From Escherichia phage vB_EcoP_PAS59: DNA of 64,000 nucleotides. Location of the stretch: sequence record OQ921332.1. One strand, 5' to 3'. Made by a program: the position numbers and the translations under genes. The notes beneath the pieces are model-generated. The model was not told where the DNA came from and ran no database searches. It saw only the letters and a list, made by a program, of their open reading frames with translations. Of this stretch, positions 3,391 to 60,190 are shown piece by piece. Each line of letters starts with the position of its first letter. Position 1 is the first letter of the stretch.

Positions 3391-4487
3391 CAACCGTAGC
3401 ACAAGTTTTTGGATACCGTAACCCTCGCTTATCTGAACCGCATCCAAGCATTGCTTTTCAGTGTGGTGTTGGTATTGAGTTAGAAGTCGAAGGTACTACT
3501 GACATTGACGTTGATATGTGGGTTTGTACTGAAGACGGCTCTCTTCGTGATGGTTGTGAGTTAGTGTGTTCACGACCTTACAACGGTGAAGAATTACTTC
3601 GTGCTATTAACAATCTGAGTGAAGCAGTACAGGATTCTGGAGCCGAGGGGACTTGGCGCTGCTCCACTCACGTTCATATGGATATGCGGGACGCTGATAG
3701 TAATATCCTTAAGAAAGTTATTCTTGGGTGGACGTTCTATGAAAAGATGATGTTCAAATGTTCTGGATATCATCGTTACCGTAGTAACTTCTGCCCAGCT
3801 TTTGCTGTTGTTCAAGCTCAAGTTATGAATGCTTCATCAGCGTTCAACCGAGATGGGGAAGATTTCTTCCGTACTCTTGTTAATAGCTGGGACAAGTATA
3901 CCTCCCTTAACCTGTTGCCTCTATCTCAGTTTGGTTCTGTTGAGTTTCGTATTTCAGAGCCGAAGTGGAAAAAGAGTCAGCTGCTAAATCTGGTCAATCG
4001 CTTCTTGGTTCTCAAGAAACTGGCTGTTGAATATGCAGATTTAGATAATGAAGCTTATGTTGAGAAGTTGAATGAGCTGCGCTTCGCTCCTATGATTCAA
4101 CATCTACCTCTAGACTATACTCCAAGAGATAGCGATCTCACTGAAGGGTATCGTCTTGCCCGTGATATTCTGTTCTGTCGTGAGCAATCTGTAACTTTGG
4201 TTGGTCGTGTTCGTGTGCAACAGACTGGCCCTGATGGTGAAGTCCTTATCAACTTACGTGACATGAATGACTTCTATGGTTTCTTGGGATATGTGCGCGG
4301 TAATGCCAACACTGTCTATGAAGAGATCATGACCTACTACACCCCTCAGATTGAAAGCACTCGAATCGCAACGGTTCGTGAAATTCGTCACATGTTTGCA
4401 TTGATGCGTGAATCAGGTAGCAGTGATAATAACATCACTGATTACATTCCAGACCATCTGGAAATGCAATTAGAACGACTGCTGTAA
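3387..4487 (+). CDS. amidoligase-like protein (glutamine-synthetase-like fold)
   Basis: 'GVGIELEVEG', 'DGSLRDGCELV', 'STHVHMD' resemble the amidoligase/GCS2 superfamily. Confidence 0.5.
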   Translation: MTTVAQVFGYRNPRLSEPHPSIAFQCGVGIELEVEGTTDIDVDMWVCTEDGSLRDGCELVCSRPYNGEELLRAINNLSEAVQDSGAEGTWRCSTHVHMDMRDADSNILKKVILGWTFYEKMMFKCSGYHRYRSNFCPAFAVVQAQVMNASSAFNRDGEDFFRTLVNSWDKYTSLNLLPLSQFGSVEFRISEPKWKKSQLLNLVNRFLVLKKLAVEYADLDNEAYVEKLNELRFAPMIQHLPLDYTPRDSDLTEGYRLARDILFCREQSVTLVGRVRVQQTGPDGEVLINLRDMNDFYGFLGYVRGNANTVYEEIMTYYTPQIESTRIATVREIRHMFALMRESGSSDNNITDYIPDHLEMQLERLL

Positions 4488-41494: not shown

Positions 41495-42529
41495 TTATAT
41501 ACTTGCAAAAACTTTAGTTGCATCTAATACAGGAACGGAGATCCCTATAGTTGAGTTAGAGCCTAGGTCGTAGGAGTTATCCCACTGGAACATATACCTC
41601 CCATACCCTGTACCAAAAGAAGAACCATTCATAGTGTGTGACCTAGCATGTTGGAAATACCAACCACTACCACTACCTCGGATAGCACCTACACCAGAAG
41701 ATAAAGGTATCATTGGGTATGAGATTCCTGTATTCCCACCACTATAAGGCATGAAATTGTGAATCATCATTGGTGTTCTGTAAGTAGAGAATACACACTG
41801 AGAGCCGTTAGGAGAATAAATGTTTAGTCCTCCATTGTGAGTAGGGACACTACCACCATCACAGAATACTGCAACCCTAACTGTTCCAATGTTACCACCT
41901 GCGTTGTTGTTTCCGTTATTGTAAGATCTGTTCTGATACACACGGATAGTTCTATCACCAGCTGTGTAGAGAAGACCTGCACCACTATTTGACCAGTTAG
42001 CAAATACCATGTATCTATTTGAGTCAAACCCGCTAATTGCTGGTATTTGCATAGAGCCGTTGATTGTTCCCTCCCAAGCATAGATACACTGACCAACTGT
42101 ACCACTATCAGAGATGGAGAAATAGTCAGCTGTGTTTGAAAAAGTAATACCGTAATTTCTATTAGCTCTAGGCCAAATCTGATATACGTTAAACCCACAA
42201 TCAAACAAAGGGTTGCTTCCGGGGTTTTGATTGATACTGACCCTAAAGGTAGAATTGTTAACCACAGATATTCCGGTGACACAATAAACATCAGGAACCA
42301 AGTTAGGAGGGACTTCCCATTGCCAACACAAACTACCAATCGGAGCAATAACAATCTGACCTGAACCATCCCAGCCAGATATAGGAAAATCTCTACTCCC
42401 ACCATTGAAGTTGTAATTACCACTTACTCTGTTCTTAAACTGAGGGAATGTTGAATCGCTATCAATATATAAGTCAGCTGGAGAAGCTGGTCCCGGACCT
42501 ACCGGAGTTGTCCAAATCCCATATGCCAT
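41495..42529 (-). CDS. structural protein (tail/receptor-binding candidate)
   Basis: Gly/Asn/Ser-rich composition typical of tail proteins. Confidence 0.35.
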   Translation of the reverse strand: MAYGIWTTPVGPGPASPADLYIDSDSTFPQFKNRVSGNYNFNGGSRDFPISGWDGSGQIVIAPIGSLCWQWEVPPNLVPDVYCVTGISVVNNSTFRVSINQNPGSNPLFDCGFNVYQIWPRANRNYGITFSNTADYFSISDSGTVGQCIYAWEGTINGSMQIPAISGFDSNRYMVFANWSNSGAGLLYTAGDRTIRVYQNRSYNNGNNNAGGNIGTVRVAVFCDGGSVPTHNGGLNIYSPNGSQCVFSTYRTPMMIHNFMPYSGGNTGISYPMIPLSSGVGAIRGSGSGWYFQHARSHTMNGSSFGTGYGRYMFQWDNSYDLGSNSTIGISVPVLDATKVFASI

Positions 42530-53650: not shown

Positions 53651-54421
53651 TTAACTGTAATGTTTAATTCCGTATAATTCACGAGAGCTGTGAAGACGGT
53701 CGATAGTTCGAGGGATAACTAGAGGAGAACCTGAATACTCAGCTTTCTTGCTCTGTTCAACTACTTCATCTAAGATGGCTTTCCCTAAAGCCGACCACTT
53801 CTGAACCCCATTATCATCTTGAACAAACAAGCTTGCATGACGTAATGTGAAATATAGAAGAAGCTCTGGAGCTATTGTTAAAATTGCACTTGTATCAGAA
53901 TCCTCATGAAACTCCGGAGGGTCTGCATAATAGCTAAGAATTACCGAATTCTCCGCTGGAATAAGAGGGCTTCCATCATCAGGGTAGACCGGAGTATCGG
54001 CGTTGATGGCTGGGTAGAACAGGAACCGACTTCCCAACCTAGTAAAACTCACCTCTCCCTGATTCCATTTAGTTGGGTTTACTGAGTTATTTCTTTTCAG
54101 CCAATCTAACTCTTCTGGAGAAGTTACTCGGAACATATGTCCATTACTTGCTCTCATCATCCACTGAGCTTCTAAGTAGTCTGGTGGAATAAAAGCCACA
54201 CCATCTTTAATATCTAAATATACTTCTTTTTCCAGAGGAGGAATTCGTAAGTTACGATAGATTTCTTTCTCTGCAAAGTTAATAAAGTTTGGAATCTGAT
54301 TAACAAATTCATCATCATCCCTGTCAGCCCAGAGGGACACAGCTTTCTTGAGCCATCCGTAGGTATTGATGGGATATTGAACGTCAGGCAACATAGGATA
54401 CCTCCTTCCAGTTTGTGCCAT
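53651..54421 (-). CDS. tail/adaptor structural protein (putative)
   Basis: Position between capsid and fibers. Confidence 0.3.
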   Translation of the reverse strand: MAQTGRRYPMLPDVQYPINTYGWLKKAVSLWADRDDDEFVNQIPNFINFAEKEIYRNLRIPPLEKEVYLDIKDGVAFIPPDYLEAQWMMRASNGHMFRVTSPEELDWLKRNNSVNPTKWNQGEVSFTRLGSRFLFYPAINADTPVYPDDGSPLIPAENSVILSYYADPPEFHEDSDTSAILTIAPELLLYFTLRHASLFVQDDNGVQKWSALGKAILDEVVEQSKKAEYSGSPLVIPRTIDRLHSSRELYGIKHYS

Positions 54422-54896
54422 TGATTATTAGGCTTATTGTGCTTGAAGAGACTCCAAACTTCCTAGCTAAAGCTCTAGCTCCGAACTGTCTGTCCCTCGG
54501 TTTATAGTTCTCTAAACAGAAAAGAACTTGTTCTTTAGTAAGTTTGGAATTAGGATTATCCTCAAGATTCCTTGGTGTTGAGAGTTTTGTTTCATAAGCA
54601 TGTACACAGTTTTCTTGTTGAGTACACCACTCTAGATTCTCAATCCTGTTGTCATCTTTTATTCCATTCTTATGGTTGACATACTCCTTCCCTTCTACTT
54701 TAGGAAGAAAGAGTTCAGCTATGACTCTATGTTCTAGGTAAGATTTCTTCTTGAAGGTTAACACACGATATCCCTTACTATTAATACATCCAGCACGTTG
54801 ACCTTTCTGTTTATTGAATATGTTACTCATAGACCAGAAAAGATGCCCTGTATTCGGGTTATATGTAAAAGCTCCTCTGAAATCTGGCATTGCCAT
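54384..54896 (-). CDS. HNH homing endonuclease with C-terminal HTH
   Basis: 'YVNHKNGIKDDNRIENLEWCTQQEN'; C-terminal 'ALARKFGVSSSTISLIINGTNWKEV'. Confidence 0.65.
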   Translation of the reverse strand: MAMPDFRGAFTYNPNTGHLFWSMSNIFNKQKGQRAGCINSKGYRVLTFKKKSYLEHRVIAELFLPKVEGKEYVNHKNGIKDDNRIENLEWCTQQENCVHAYETKLSTPRNLEDNPNSKLTKEQVLFCLENYKPRDRQFGARALARKFGVSSSTISLIINGTNWKEVSYVA

Positions 54897-54960: not shown

Positions 54961-54991
54961 AAAACGAAAAAACCCCGCCCGAAGGCAGGGT
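54961..54991 (-). terminator. strong intrinsic terminator CCCUGCC-UUCG-GGCGGGG plus UUUUUUCGUUUU
   Basis: Immediately after the capsid/Ig-extension stop. Confidence 0.65.
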
Positions 54992-54998
54992 CTAGTTT

Positions 54999-55511
54999 TT
55001 AAACAGGTGTTACACCAGTAAAAGTGCATGTTGCATTGATGGACGGGTCAGCTGTCAAACTTGCTTGAACAGTAACTTCGCCACTTGCAGCAGCATCTAA
55101 GGTTAACGCACCAGCGGCGCTTACTGTACCAGCTTCTGTAGGAGTTACAACAAACGTGTAATCCGCAGCAGCAGAATTAGTTACAGTAAACATGGTAGTG
55201 AAGTTAGTGGAAGAACCACCAGTTTTACCCGTAATTGGACCCTTAGCTACAATAGTAGGAGCAGGAGCAACAATTTCAGAAATGGTTGCTGTACCAGAAA
55301 CACCTTCTAAAGTTGCAGTAATGGATACATCAGTGGATTGAGACGCACTCGGAGCAGTATACAAACCCGACTGAGTGATAGAACCACCTCCTGTCACTGA
55401 CCAAGTAAAGCCAGTTGTTTCGGTAGAACCATCACTTTTCTCCGCGCTTGCAGTGAACTGCCGAGTAGCCCCTGTCTCTAGGCTTGCTAAAGACGCAGGG
55501 CTAACAGTCAC
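54999..55511 (-). CDS. Ig-like (Big_2-type) domain, probably made as a C-terminal capsid extension by -1 frameshifting
   Basis: In the -1 frame relative to the capsid ORF and open across its stop; 'SPASLASLETGATRQFTA...TWSVTGGGSITQSGLYTA'. Confidence 0.55.
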   Translation of the reverse strand: MTVSPASLASLETGATRQFTASAEKSDGSTETTGFTWSVTGGGSITQSGLYTAPSASQSTDVSITATLEGVSGTATISEIVAPAPTIVAKGPITGKTGGSSTNFTTMFTVTNSAAADYTFVVTPTEAGTVSAAGALTLDAAASGEVTVQASLTADPSINATCTFTGVTPV

Positions 55512-55522
55512 ACTGTCTACTG

Positions 55523-56578
55523 TTACGCCGCCACCTTTCCCGCAGCAGTGAACAGAACGCCGGAAGCATACGGGTTGCGGTGACGCAGACCAACTTCCAT
55601 TTCAATCATCCACTTCTCGTAAGAACCATCTTTAGCCAGTTCAGTACGTTTCGGAGCACGAAGAACCATCTGAGTCCAGTCAGAGCTGCGGAAGAAGTAA
55701 ACTGCATCAGCAGGCATCCAACGGTTAACGATGATTTTATAGCTCTGGCCCAGCGGGTCAGTGATGCTGTTAACTTCATAGATGAACTGTTTGGTGTTCT
55801 CAAAGATACGCTGACGAGAACCAACAGAGTTTTCCTGAAGCTTAGCAAAGATGCTAGCGTGAGCAGGGTTGATCATGATGATATCTGCTTCAGAACCAGC
55901 GGTATACAGTTGCAGAGTCATATCAAAGATATCAGCTTCATCAAAACCGATGTTCGTAGTCGGGTTAGAAGCATTCTGTGCAACTTTAACAGTTACTGCA
56001 CCAGTATCCGGGTCAGCAGGACCATTTTCTTTCTTAACAACACCGCCAGCAACACCATTGTGTGCACACAGGAACTGGAAAGCACCAGTCTTACGAGCAG
56101 CTGAAGTGTCGTTCTGGCCTACAACAGCAGGATCAGTTGCAGAGTTGGTCAGATACTGGTCTGCCAGAATATCGGTACGAGCCTGACCGGACAGCAAGAT
56201 TTTCTCGAGGTCACGTTTAATCTCTTTACCTTTCTTCTCCAGCTGATACATCAGTTCACGACCACGACCGTAGTTAGCGGTGGTGTTAGCAGTATCAGAA
56301 ACACGAACAACTTTACGCAGGATCTGAGTAACGTTGGACTTGATTACAGTCGGTTTCATTTCGCCGTCTTCAGCACGAGAGCCTTCGACGTGGGCGTTGT
56401 TAGCATCTACGCTCGCCAGAGCATCGGTCTGCCAGCTGAAAATAGTCTGATTGATAGACTCTTTACCAGTCATAGACACAAACGGAGTGTCTTGCGGAGA
56501 CAGGACAGAAATCCAGTTAGCAAAAGAAAGTTTTTTACCATTCTGGTCGTAAGATACAAATAAAGTTGGATTTGCCAT
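55523..56578 (-). CDS. major capsid protein
   Basis: 351 aa after scaffold, before strong terminator; frameshift extension. Confidence 0.6.
   Translation of the reverse strand: MANPTLFVSYDQNGKKLSFANWISVLSPQDTPFVSMTGKESINQTIFSWQTDALASVDANNAHVEGSRAEDGEMKPTVIKSNVTQILRKVVRVSDTANTTANYGRGRELMYQLEKKGKEIKRDLEKILLSGQARTDILADQYLTNSATDPAVVGQNDTSAARKTGAFQFLCAHNGVAGGVVKKENGPADPDTGAVTVKVAQNASNPTTNIGFDEADIFDMTLQLYTAGSEADIIMINPAHASIFAKLQENSVGSRQRIFENTKQFIYEVNSITDPLGQSYKIIVNRWMPADAVYFFRSSDWTQMVLRAPKRTELAKDGSYEKWMIEMEVGLRHRNPYASGVLFTAAGKVAA
55535..55541 (-). promoter_or_regulatory. candidate -1 slippery heptamer G_GGA_AAG, 4 codons before the capsid stop
   Basis: Plus-strand CTTTCCC at 55535-55541; possible hairpin AACAGU...ACUGUU about 10 nt downstream. 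Confidence 0.5.
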
Positions 56579-56618: not shown

Positions 56619-57701
56619 TTAATCTACGAGATACTTAAATGCGTCTTCGTGACGAATACGACCCTCTGAGAATGCCTTGGCAACCTTAGCGTTGTCTGGC
56701 GTATTGGAAGAACGAGACTTAGAAGCATCGGACTTCACAACCTTGCGTGGAGAGCCGGGACGTTTAATCTTAGCCATCACTTGCTGCTTACCTTTATCAA
56801 ATTGGTATGCTTTGTGCAGAGCTAGGAAAATTGACGGACGGTTCTCTTTCAGCACTTCTTCTTCTGTAGCACCTAAGTCGATTGCATACTGCATCAGGTT
56901 CTGATACAAGTTGTCATCCCAATTAGGAATCTCACGTTTAAGTACGCTTACACATTCGGTACACTTAGCTTGGAAGAGCTGTTGTTCTTTTGCTTGTGCT
57001 TCCTGCTTGATTTTAAGCTGAGCTTGTTCAAGCTGTTGGCGACGAGCTGTATATTTTTCTAAGAAACGTTTGTTTTCTACATAAGCTTGAGGATCTTCTT
57101 GTGCGAGTTTGTCCCAATCAAAACCGTTGTAATCTTCAATTACTCGGTCTGCTTCTAGGGCAGCTAGTTCTAATACATCACCCAAACCAGAAACACGTTC
57201 TTCAAAAGCTTCAACATGACGCTGCAAAGTAGTCTCACGTTCGGACATTTCTGCACCAGTCAAATAGCCATTAGACAACTCTTCAATAGTCATCTCACGA
57301 CCATCAGGAAGGGTGATAACAGTTTCGTAATCTACGTCAAAGACTTCGCCTTCTTCGCCATCTTCATCACTGTCAGCAGCTTCATCGTGATCTGCTTCAC
57401 TGGAATCATCATCTTCATCTTCTCCATCAGAGAACTCAGACTCTTCCTCTTCTTCTTCACCTTCCTCTTCACGATCTTCCCAACCATCTTCATCTTCGAA
57501 CGCTAACGTATCGTCATCACCGAGAAGGTCGGAAGCATCAAGATCAAAAGTCTCAGACTGTTCTGGGAATTCATCATCAATGTTCACTTCTGGTTCACGT
57601 TCTGATTCTAATTGACTAAGCTCTTCTTTGAAGGAGCCTTTTAAGTCGTCTAGTTGGAGGAAAGATTTAAAATCGTTCGGGTCAATATAATCATTTGCCA
57701 T
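56619..57701 (-). CDS. scaffolding protein
   Basis: Highly acidic with long D/E runs and helical C-terminus, between portal and capsid. Confidence 0.55.
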   Translation of the reverse strand: MANDYIDPNDFKSFLQLDDLKGSFKEELSQLESEREPEVNIDDEFPEQSETFDLDASDLLGDDDTLAFEDEDGWEDREEEGEEEEEESEFSDGEDEDDDSSEADHDEAADSDEDGEEGEVFDVDYETVITLPDGREMTIEELSNGYLTGAEMSERETTLQRHVEAFEERVSGLGDVLELAALEADRVIEDYNGFDWDKLAQEDPQAYVENKRFLEKYTARRQQLEQAQLKIKQEAQAKEQQLFQAKCTECVSVLKREIPNWDDNLYQNLMQYAIDLGATEEEVLKENRPSIFLALHKAYQFDKGKQQVMAKIKRPGSPRKVVKSDASKSRSSNTPDNAKVAKAFSEGRIRHEDAFKYLVD

Positions 57702-57946: not shown

Positions 57947-60190
57947 TTATTTTCTACTACCAAGACGACGGTTAGGAATCCGTGAATCTTTGATTGAACT
58001 TTGCTGTTCTTTCTTAGTTTCATTTGCTTCTTTCTTTTGGAGTTCCAAAGTCTTATCTTGAATTTTAGCCTGATTTGCAACTTTCTCAACATCGACCTGA
58101 TGATCAAGAGTCATCTGCAATTCTTTAAGTACAGATTCATACTGACGGACCTGTTGCTGGAGTAAAGCCAACTTATGCTTAGCTTGTTCAAGTGTAGCAC
58201 TGTTATCTTCTTTACGATTCTCCAGAGTCATCTGATCAGCAGCATTCTCTTGCTTAAATTGCAGTTCTTCTTGACGTAAGCTAAACTCGTCCGCAGCTTT
58301 CTGCTGTTCAAACGTAGTACGTTCACGCTGGTCGAATGCATCAGCAATCATCTTCTGAGAAGAAGCCTGTACGTTCTCAACCTGTGCTTTAGTCATCTCA
58401 AGCTGGAGGATTTCCATCGGAGTTGGCTCAGGAGGTTGATACTGTTCCAGAGGCATCAAGTATTTGTGAGTATCTTTAATTCCCATCAACTCAAAGATCT
58501 GTGCAGTCATATAACGATCCTGTTCTAGAGTAAACAGAGGTGCTAACTGAGCATCAGCAGCAATCAATTGCTTCAGGCTAATGAGTTTCTGTGCACGTTC
58601 TGATTTCTCACTAGGAGAGATAGCTACAACAACCTGTAAGTTATGACGAGCAGGTAATTGTTTAGGGTGAACCTGAACCATACCACGAGGAGTTTGTACC
58701 TGTAAAGGAACTTCACCATTTTCTCGAACTAAATTATAAATACCACGCATCAATTCAACCATACCGTTGTGAGCAATGTTACGACAGACCATACGGAGAC
58801 GGTTCTGAGCAGCATTCATCATCAACCCAACAGTTGCATACGCGTTATCATTCTTAAACACATCAGGGTTAATACCCATACCGAGTTTAGTAACACCAGT
58901 ACGAGTTTCTTTCAATTCATCAGACATTCCCAGCAAGCCATCAATACCTTGAGGTAGATTATGGTATGGGAAGAGATCAATCGCATCCTGACGCTCCATT
59001 TCTACTACACCACCCGGACGGTTGTCTAACAAAGAACGACGGTCATACGCGCCTACAAGCGCCTTATATCGACCATAGTTAGCGTTATTTACGTTATCAA
59101 TGTAACCACGGACCAAAGCGGTACGTAAATCCTGAATATCTTTAGTAATATCATAAACCGACTGTCCATAGAATGAACCCGGAATAGGATAAGGGCAGAA
59201 AGTTACAAAAGGAATGCTAGTTACTTCCTCACAAGAGAGAATATGCTCACCTGCTTGAATGACTTGGTAGAGTTTTGATTCTTTATTCTTATCAAGTACA
59301 CCAGTACGGATATAGTGTTCATAAACCCATACCATACTTGCAATATCATCAGTATCAACACCGATATCAGCATCAGTGTCCTGTCTCCAGTCAGTACGTG
59401 ACCATGCAACAGTAGACTGAGTGGTGTCCATTGTGTCAGTCCAGTCGTTAAAAGCTTCGATTTCATCTTTAGGGAAGCCCATAGCAACCAAATCTTCTTT
59501 AGATTTACGTGTGCGATGACAGAAATATTGAGCATCTGCAAAAGAGGTAGCGTGTTCATCAACAAAGATCTGCTCTGAAGGAACATATTCTACTTTAACA
59601 CGTTTTACTGTTTGTTTGTAAGTTACTTTAACGTCCACTGTACCATCTTCATTGTCAGTGGTAAAAATTTCTAAATCTTGAAGCCCACCAGCTTCTAAAC
59701 CTTGGACATATGCAGCCAAAGCTTCCGGAGGAACACCCTCTGCTTCTTCTGTTTGAGTAGAAGTCTGTTCATCCCAATAGTATTTAATAAAAGAGTTACG
59801 TGTAACCAGACACTCTTGTGCCGCTGAAGAGATAATATTGTATCCCGGATTATCACGTAACAAAATTTGATTGACAAGTTTAGTGGCTACATCAGCAGCA
59901 TCACTATCTTCTTGGTTATCGGCTACGAAAGTTACCGCTTCGTCACCAGAACAGAACACGTTAATGATATCTTGGAGCGTACCATTCACTGATTCCCATA
60001 CCGTACGGTCTACCCAACTAGAACTACCAGCAGTAACTGGAGCAGGAAGGTTCCCATAGAAGTATTCCCAAGCCTCACGAGCATAGCCTTTTACAGCTAA
60101 GTCTACATAGCCTTGAGCATAATTGAATCGACGTTGAAGGTCAACGCGTAATTCATCCAAAACATCTTCACTAAATTTCTTCTTAGCCAT
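57947..60190 (-). CDS. portal protein (T7 gp8-like) with C-terminal coiled-coil extension
   Basis: 'FCPYPIPGSFYGQSVYD' resembles T7 gp8 'CPYIPIRMVRLDGESYGRSY'; size and position. Confidence 0.7.
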   Translation of the reverse strand: MAKKKFSEDVLDELRVDLQRRFNYAQGYVDLAVKGYAREAWEYFYGNLPAPVTAGSSSWVDRTVWESVNGTLQDIINVFCSGDEAVTFVADNQEDSDAADVATKLVNQILLRDNPGYNIISSAAQECLVTRNSFIKYYWDEQTSTQTEEAEGVPPEALAAYVQGLEAGGLQDLEIFTTDNEDGTVDVKVTYKQTVKRVKVEYVPSEQIFVDEHATSFADAQYFCHRTRKSKEDLVAMGFPKDEIEAFNDWTDTMDTTQSTVAWSRTDWRQDTDADIGVDTDDIASMVWVYEHYIRTGVLDKNKESKLYQVIQAGEHILSCEEVTSIPFVTFCPYPIPGSFYGQSVYDITKDIQDLRTALVRGYIDNVNNANYGRYKALVGAYDRRSLLDNRPGGVVEMERQDAIDLFPYHNLPQGIDGLLGMSDELKETRTGVTKLGMGINPDVFKNDNAYATVGLMMNAAQNRLRMVCRNIAHNGMVELMRGIYNLVRENGEVPLQVQTPRGMVQVHPKQLPARHNLQVVVAISPSEKSERAQKLISLKQLIAADAQLAPLFTLEQDRYMTAQIFELMGIKDTHKYLMPLEQYQPPEPTPMEILQLEMTKAQVENVQASSQKMIADAFDQRERTTFEQQKAADEFSLRQEELQFKQENAADQMTLENRKEDNSATLEQAKHKLALLQQQVRQYESVLKELQMTLDHQVDVEKVANQAKIQDKTLELQKKEANETKKEQQSSIKDSRIPNRRLGSRK

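Follow-up and report, generated by a model that had tools for sequence, protein, structure and literature searches.

Probable −1 ribosomal frameshifting would extend an SU10-type major capsid protein with Ig-like domains in Escherichia phage vB_EcoP_PAS59

How is an Ig-like reading frame translated when it lies directly behind, and out of frame with, a phage major capsid gene? This question is raised by a locus in Escherichia phage vB_EcoP_PAS59 (sequence record OQ921332.1), of which we analyzed a stretch of 64,000 nucleotides (henceforth the window). As an earlier note made from the sequence alone had reported, the list of ORFs places the end of the capsid ORF at 55523 and an Ig-like ORF at 54999-55511, in the −1 frame relative to it. 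The note proposed that some ribosomes slip into the −1 frame shortly before the capsid stop codon and thereby fuse the two products. At the DNA level, the 1.8-kb region around the site shares 99.1% identity with Escherichia phage MLP3 and 98.7% with phages 4E8, SU7, and IME267. Of the 122 phage records that it matches, nearly all are from prolate E. coli podophages. According to its record annotation, SU7 belongs to the Gordonclarkvirinae, genus Suseptimavirus, next to Kuravirus, the genus of SU10; phiEco32 has likewise been named as a Kuravirus (PMC7881722).

The gene order on the minus strand begins with the portal gene (60190..57947), followed by a small ORF, a gene for an acidic scaffolding protein (57701..56619), and the major capsid gene (55523..56578), whose 0 frame encodes 351 residues (38.6 kDa) and ends with a TAA at 55525..55523. 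The capsid ORF matches Pfam SU10_MCP (PF17236, E = 3e-79), the sole Pfam family returned, as well as PHROG 1328, major head protein (8e-120), and its product shares 99.7% identity with the IME267 and UKE3 major head proteins. It belongs to the SU10_MCP family, as do the long-isoform capsid proteins of the Kuravirus-like phages phiEco32, SU10, and YF01. By contrast, homology to T7 gp10 was found neither in the Pfam scan nor among the listed tblastn relatives of the capsid protein, which comprise prolate podophages together with LUZ24-like and other Pseudomonas phages but no T7-like phage. On the other side of the Ig-like ORF, a terminator scan revealed an intrinsic terminator-like hairpin on the minus strand (54970..54993; 10-pair stem with six G-C pairs and a T-rich tail) that begins 6 nt past the stop codon closing the Ig-like frame, and the minus-strand genes past it encode an HNH endonuclease, a virion structural protein, and a tail fiber. 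The SU10 record has a terminator annotated at the equivalent place, after the Ig ORF. Since the terminator is placed after the Ig ORF and not after the capsid stop, the capsid and Ig ORFs should share one transcript.

Toward its 3' end, the capsid frame reads ...ACU GCU GCG GGA AAG GUG GCG GCG UAA on the minus strand. It contains the slippery heptamer G_GGA_AAG (minus strand, 55541..55535; plus-strand CTTTCCC), a canonical X_XXY_YYZ sequence in the correct frame, the AAG of which is the fourth codon ahead of the stop, just where the earlier note had put it. After a slip of one base backward, the message would be read GGG AAA GGU GGC GGC GUA ACA GUA GAC AGU GUG..., giving ...AAGKGGGVTVDSVTVSPASL, and our reading of the minus strand yields the very fusion junction that had been predicted (...AAGK-GGGVTVDSVTVSPASL...). 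The −1 frame is indeed open across the capsid stop, beginning 25 codons before it and continuing for 175 codons past it. In all, 178 codons (55535..55002) would be read after the slip up to a TAA at 55001..54999, so that the extension with its stop spans 54999..55535. The slip product would thus comprise 526 residues (55.6 kDa) as opposed to the 351 residues (38.6 kDa) of the capsid protein; the net gain of 175 residues and 17.0 kDa is close to the initial estimate of about 170 residues and 18 kDa.

This arrangement is not a chance coincidence. G_GGA_AAG is the single in-frame X_XXY_YYZ heptamer of the capsid gene, and among the 47 in-frame heptamers in ORFs of at least 150 aa across the window, just three are followed by at least 50 open −1 codons. 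The heptamers at 42195 and 42030 are artefacts, since they lie inside a 199-aa ORF nested in a longer ORF (41495..42529), which leaves the capsid site as the sole genuine pair of heptamer and long −1 ORF in the window. Stop-codon readthrough was rejected because it would continue in the 0 frame, whereas the Ig ORF occupies the −1 frame. Stuttering of RNA polymerase (transcriptional slippage) would give the same protein as ribosomal slippage, and the two cannot formally be separated by sequence alone. However, productive transcriptional slippage needs runs of ~6-9 A or T, while no homopolymer at the site exceeds 3 nt (GGG and AAA), and the conserved unit is an X_XXY_YYZ heptamer in the 0 frame, a feature relevant to tRNA re-pairing only. 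We therefore reject a transcriptional origin of the fusion, for which no homopolymer run is available, and regard it as extremely unlikely.

The −1 frame behind the heptamer has the properties expected of a protein-coding sequence with an Ig-like fold. The extension matches PHROG 13745, 'Ig domain containing protein' (1.5e-80), and Pfam Big_2 with 24.7 bits against a gathering cut-off of 22.8, the match covering residues ~9-86 of the 181-aa translation of 55544..55002. An AlphaFold2 model of the extension is all-beta with a mean pLDDT of 83.6: the first domain (residues 1-90) is modeled with a pLDDT above 90, and a second domain of ~85 residues (~91-178), which has no significant match in the Pfam scan, is likewise all-beta and moderately confident (pLDDT 58-83). 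On the strength of this model, the extension is predicted to consist of a Big_2 Ig-like domain and a second beta-sandwich domain. Foldseek matched the model to the tandem Big domains of Leptospira LigA (6e-8) and to Big domains of LigB, as well as to the Ig-like domains of the phi29 capsid protein gp8 and of the T5 tail tube protein pb6; a sequence search of the extension against PDB chains returned just marginal matches (E of at least 0.09). The dN/dS ratio of the whole extension is 0.20-0.25 and 9-16 stops interrupt the remaining two frames of this DNA, which points to purifying selection along the whole extension and to a −1 ORF that is coding.

A coding Ig-like ORF could also be a gene in its own right. 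The ORF list contains an ORF that starts with a GTG (54999..55511), and translation from GTG 55511 would yield a separate 170-aa protein that might decorate the capsid non-covalently. In many, if not most, GenBank records of relatives, the ORF is entered as an 'Ig domain containing protein' of its own, and the SU10 cryo-EM paper considers that gp10 may be a minor capsid protein that was lost during purification (PMC9509320). Yet no Shine-Dalgarno sequence lies 5-13 nt from the GTG, the sole SD-like run (AAGGUGG) sitting 19 nt upstream, and the SU7 record marks ribosome-binding sites for both flanking genes but none for the Ig ORF. Nor is the start codon conserved: it is replaced by ATA or GTA in loci L012, L013, L014, L022, L024, and L026, the earliest possible start in loci lacking the GTG falls at extension codons 34-47, within the Big_2 domain, and Privateer has no start codon ahead of extension codon 61. 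Meanwhile, the reading frame runs on from the heptamer in all relatives, and the first 33 extension codons have a dN/dS of 0.10-0.21, indicating that the protein is conserved upstream of any start. The first eight residues of the fusion peptide GGGVTVDSVTVSPASLASLETGATR are encoded upstream of GTG 55511. Translation from this GTG, which had been named in advance as the observation that would speak against frameshifting, is thus disfavored by the lack of a Shine-Dalgarno sequence, by an unconserved start, and by coding selection upstream of it, and we consider a separate, non-covalent Ig protein improbable.

Fusion by frameshifting, on the other hand, would leave its mark in the conservation of the heptamer. 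We compared 14 Gordonclarkvirinae loci, which include members of Kuravirus, Suseptimavirus, and Nieuwekanaalvirus along with five IMG/VR contigs. GGGAAAG is invariant in all 14, while the codons flanking it vary (GUGGCGGCG, GCAGUGGCGGCG, GCGGGAGCG...), and it is also kept in both Privateervirus loci, those of Privateer and vB_CsaP_009 (58% capsid identity), which belong to another prolate podophage family. The heptamer is therefore conserved beyond what its amino acids demand, as the C-terminal residues around it differ among the loci. In 13 of the 14 Gordonclarkvirinae loci, it leads into an open −1 frame of 178-270 codons; the exception is deposited SU10, in which a 1-nt indel that is absent from the phage studied here closes the −1 frame after 11 codons; the closed SU10 frame has been noted independently in the YF01 paper (PMC9965538).

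The covalent product can be followed further across the family. When the 526-aa fusion was used as query, it matched the annotated 892-aa slippage product of YF01 (P0001) with 83% identity over 99% coverage, and the alignment with this slippage product is unbroken across the junction (...FTAAGKG-GGVTVD..., 68% identity). In Privateer and vB_CsaP_009, GGGAAAG abuts the stop codon and is followed by a non-homologous I-set and Big_2 extension of 169 codons, and the Privateer record carries a joined CDS described as 'frameshift from major capsid protein; verified via mass spectrometry'. In PJNS034 (42% identity), the site is C_CCA_AAA and the Ig ORF behind it has 132 codons. The search with the 526-aa fusion also yielded single-ORF fusions of SU10_MCP and Big_2, among them P0062, which aligns over the same junction as YF01. 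From the comparisons with Privateer, PJNS034, YF01, and P0062, a covalent capsid-Ig protein emerges as the conserved product, and the lineages differ only in how it is made. The frameshift proposed in the earlier note is accordingly supported by the site itself, the coding −1 ORF, the lack of a conserved start or Shine-Dalgarno sequence, the conservation, and the YF01 alignment.

A −1 frameshift site may be helped by a hairpin or pseudoknot placed 5-9 nt downstream, or by an SD-like element upstream, and the note had pointed to a possible AACAGU...ACUGUU hairpin about 10 nt downstream. The repeat is present: in the candidate stem-loop (minus strand, 55495..55534) obtained by RNA folding, UAACAGU (55525..55519), in which the capsid stop codon is embedded, pairs with ACUGUUA (55508..55502) around a 10-nt loop. 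This core begins 9 nt after the heptamer and is enclosed by an imperfect outer stem whose 5' end is the base next to the heptamer. The 40 nt downstream of the heptamer fold with −13.8 kcal/mol (z = −1.33 against shuffled sequences), and the corresponding z values are −2.0 for a 65-nt downstream stretch and −0.8 for a 61-nt stretch that includes the heptamer. Across the 14 loci the core is invariant, the loop varies, and the spacing from the heptamer is either 9 nt, as here, or 12 nt; no compensatory pair change was seen in the core in these loci, and coding requirements, namely the capsid stop codon and the V-T-V...T-V-S residues of the Big_2 domain, act on both of its arms as well. As a frameshift stimulator the hairpin is possible but unproven, its fold being weak and no better than that of shuffled sequence. 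The stem-loop put forward in the SU10 paper, CUGCUGC/GGUGGCGG, has the heptamer in its loop (PMC4281155); it is also predicted here and competes with the downstream hairpin for bases. It was rejected as a downstream roadblock because its 5' arm precedes the heptamer. Reading of the sequence also showed no SD-like element 10-14 nt upstream of the heptamer. Overall, the analysis revealed no convincing stimulatory element.

Could heptamer and open frame then be an evolutionary leftover, with an extension that is not meaningfully expressed? Deposited SU10 fits this description, combining a premature −1 stop with a uniform virion capsid, and RNA folding revealed no strong stimulatory structure at the site studied here. 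SU10 virions show no larger band on SDS-PAGE and a uniform capsid (PMC9509320, PMC9965538), and no density for an Ig protein was seen by cryo-EM (PMC9509320). Domains that are flexibly linked and present in sub-stoichiometric amounts would be lost by averaging in a symmetrised reconstruction, but the closed −1 frame is a simpler reason for the uniform SU10 capsid than symmetry averaging. A leftover is hard to reconcile, however, with a frame that has stayed open at such length in every other subfamily locus, with purifying selection over the entire extension, and with the fact that different lineages gained different Ig domains behind different slippery sites; moreover, lambda G-T uses the same heptamer productively, as cited in PMC9965538. 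We judge a silent extension to be very unlikely in this phage.

The long capsid isoform of vB_EcoP_PAS59 is, to judge from its sequence and that of its relatives, very probably made by −1 programmed ribosomal frameshifting. In the mechanism that we propose, most ribosomes on the late capsid mRNA would stop at the UAA (55525..55523) and release the 351-aa SU10-type capsid protein. A minority would slip back by one base when the Gly and Lys tRNAs on GGA_AAG re-pair with GGG_AAA, and would go on to read the 178 further codons in the −1 frame. The resulting 526-aa product would carry at its C-terminus a short Gly linker, the Big_2 Ig-like domain, and the second beta-sandwich domain. These minority 55.6-kDa subunits would co-assemble into the prolate head, with the two Ig-like domains presumably facing outward, where they may help the virion to adhere weakly to carbohydrate on cell surfaces or in the environment, the role commonly suggested for Ig-like domains of phages. 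Rates at comparable sites in other systems are cited in PMC9965538 as ~3.5% for lambda G-T and ~10% for T3/T7. The slippery signal, its conservation, and an open, start-less −1 ORF that bears the signature of selection and appears to be on the same transcript can all be read directly from the locus and its relatives, while the production and assembly of two protein species in this phage we infer from these features or from published work on relatives.

That literature is already substantial, and the capsid frameshift is known from SU10 (as in phiEco32), Privateer, YF01, and the wider Kuravirus-like group. For SU10, a 'potential ribosomal slippage (GGGAAAG)... as in phage phiEco32' was described with forms of 38.5 and 55.4 kDa, and two capsid forms were detected by mass spectrometry (PMC4281155). 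Privateer has the same signal and two capsid bands, the minor form having been analyzed by mass spectrometry, and the Privateer paper states that both capsid products were observed in phiEco32 and SU10 (PMC7881722). For YF01 'and other group phages', two capsid forms arising via GGGAAAG have been reported (PMC9965538). The phiEco32-like or Kuravirus-like phages (phiEco32, SU10, YF01, and Paul) share with the phage studied here the SU10_MCP capsid, GGGAAAG at homologous codons, and a homologous Big_2-type extension. Yet the extension varies in size: that of YF01 is ~540 codons long, with a second domain repeated several times, and that of EP335 has at least 270 codons, compared with the 178 codons and two domains found here. 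Privateer (Grimontviridae) differs in that the heptamer abuts the stop (GGA AAG UAA) and in that its I-set and Big_2 extension is not homologous.

Beyond this group, the comparison with T7 10A/10B that the earlier note had drawn stands for the mechanism and fails for homology, since the capsid protein matches only Pfam SU10_MCP. In T7 10A/10B and T3 gene 10 alike, a −1 frameshift near the end of the capsid gene leads to a minor, C-terminally extended protein that co-assembles, although the T7 slippery sequence differs from G_GGA_AAG. The extension of T3 gene 10 is Ig-like and that of T7 is not (PMC5009743). The phi29 capsid protein gp8 is similar in architecture, with a Big_2 Ig-like domain attached covalently at the C-terminus of an HK97-fold capsid protein, and Foldseek superimposed the predicted extension on this Ig domain with 27-28% identity over ~100 residues; in phi29, every subunit bears the domain because the fusion is in frame. 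The heptamer of lambda G/G-T is identical to G_GGA_AAG. In lambda, too, a low-rate −1 slip (the ~3.5% mentioned above) sets a fixed protein ratio, but its products are unrelated and form a tail assembly chaperone, not a capsid.

The SU10-type capsid family displays a variety of arrangements at this position. Its slippery sites comprise GGGAAAG, C_CCA_AAA, and A_AAA_AAG. Five further loci (L016-L018, L007, and L019) have an apparently non-canonical G_GUA_AAG with a GC-rich hairpin 6 nt downstream; if these loci frameshift, they would represent natural A-site-driven (A_AAG) slippage with a poorly re-pairing P-site codon. The 7-11-like phages, GAP52, and BUCT695 have a second capsid gene with an in-frame extension, and the outright single-ORF capsid-Ig fusion of P0062 is a further solution.

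No general principle is at stake in these findings, as the addition of Ig-like domains to phage structural proteins by frameshifting has been recognized since 2006: such domains occur on phage structural proteins generally (Fraser et al., 2006, as summarized in PMC5009743), some of them added by frameshifting, including that of T3 gene 10 (PMC5009743). What may be particular to the SU10-type capsid family, as a tentative reading that we hold with less than even confidence, is that it has repeatedly and interchangeably solved the problem of putting Ig domains on a fraction of its subunits. For annotation, the capsid and Ig ORFs would be merged into a single gene that gives two products by ribosomal slippage, whereas most GenBank records of these phages list the Ig ORF on its own as an 'Ig domain containing protein', a 'hemagglutinin', or a 'hypothetical protein'. 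Because the Ig domains would be covalently present on a minority of subunits only, symmetrised cryo-EM maps may miss them. Finally, MLP3, SU7, IME267, and SU10 are under study for therapy, and surface Ig-like domains may affect the adherence of such phages to mucus or cell surfaces.

The sequence around the slippery heptamer of the capsid gene (G_GGA_AAG) can also fold in another way. RNA folding of window 55535..55560 (minus strand) indicated that CUGCUGC-GGGAAAG-GUGGCGG is able to form a 7-bp stem with the heptamer as its loop, the structure put forward in the SU10 paper (PMC4281155). The GUGGCGG bases are contested between this stem and the hairpin downstream, and the heptamer-loop stem has no obvious role in the standard frameshift model. 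Elsewhere in the window, a 199-aa ORF (41824..42423, minus strand) carries two in-frame GGGTTTR heptamers (42195 and 42030), both followed by long apparent -1 extensions. This ORF is enclosed by a longer one (41495..42529), and we rejected both heptamers as artefacts of a spurious overlapping ORF nested within it.

The deposited sequence of SU10 itself (KM044272, 2680..2720) differs from all other members of the subfamily by a 1-nt indel just 3' of the capsid stop, which changes cagtgtgactgtt to cactgtctactgtt. With this indel, the -1 frame is open for only 11 codons and the Ig ORF falls in the capsid 0 frame, behind two stops; the hairpin as altered by the indel is a perfect 11-bp stem (-26.5 kcal/mol). 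Such an arrangement is at odds with the SU10 proteomics table (PMC4281155), which lists a 55.4-kDa "9+10" form; the indel could have arisen by mutation in the laboratory or through an error in sequencing.

Five related loci whose capsids are 59-66% identical (L016-L018, about 3412..3924, and L007/L019, about 3412..3687) have no X_XXY_YYZ heptamer at all. Here the capsid gene ends in ...CUG AAG GUA AAG GCG/CCC UAA, and behind it lies a -1 ORF of 89-170 codons that has no start codon. Its product contains either an I-set domain or two Big_2 domains (E = 8e-35). The sole shifty element is G_GUA_AAG, offering an A_AAG A-site slip, and in L016 a GC-rich hairpin begins 6 nt downstream of it (fold z = -3.6). 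G_GUA_AAG is possibly a non-canonical frameshift site.

Downstream of the capsid/Ig terminator and before the next virion structural gene lies a gene for a 170-aa HNH_3 endonuclease (window 54384..54896, minus strand; Pfam 5e-14), with a 38-nt overlap into the start of that structural gene (54421). The HNH_3 gene occupies this site in just 11 of 92 related phage records; in the others, for example SU10 and ShigP1, the terminator leads directly to the structural gene. The HNH_3 gene looks like a sporadic homing-endonuclease insertion.

The relatives BUCT695 (L005), SeKF_80 (L006), the GAP52-like L009/L020 and L021 lack a frameshift signal. These loci instead carry two or three SU10-type capsid genes in tandem, one encoding a short capsid (312-323 aa) and one a longer capsid (363-589 aa) that is extended in frame at its C-terminus. 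In such tandem genes, duplication looks to take the place of frameshifting as a way to obtain a mix of short and long capsid proteins.
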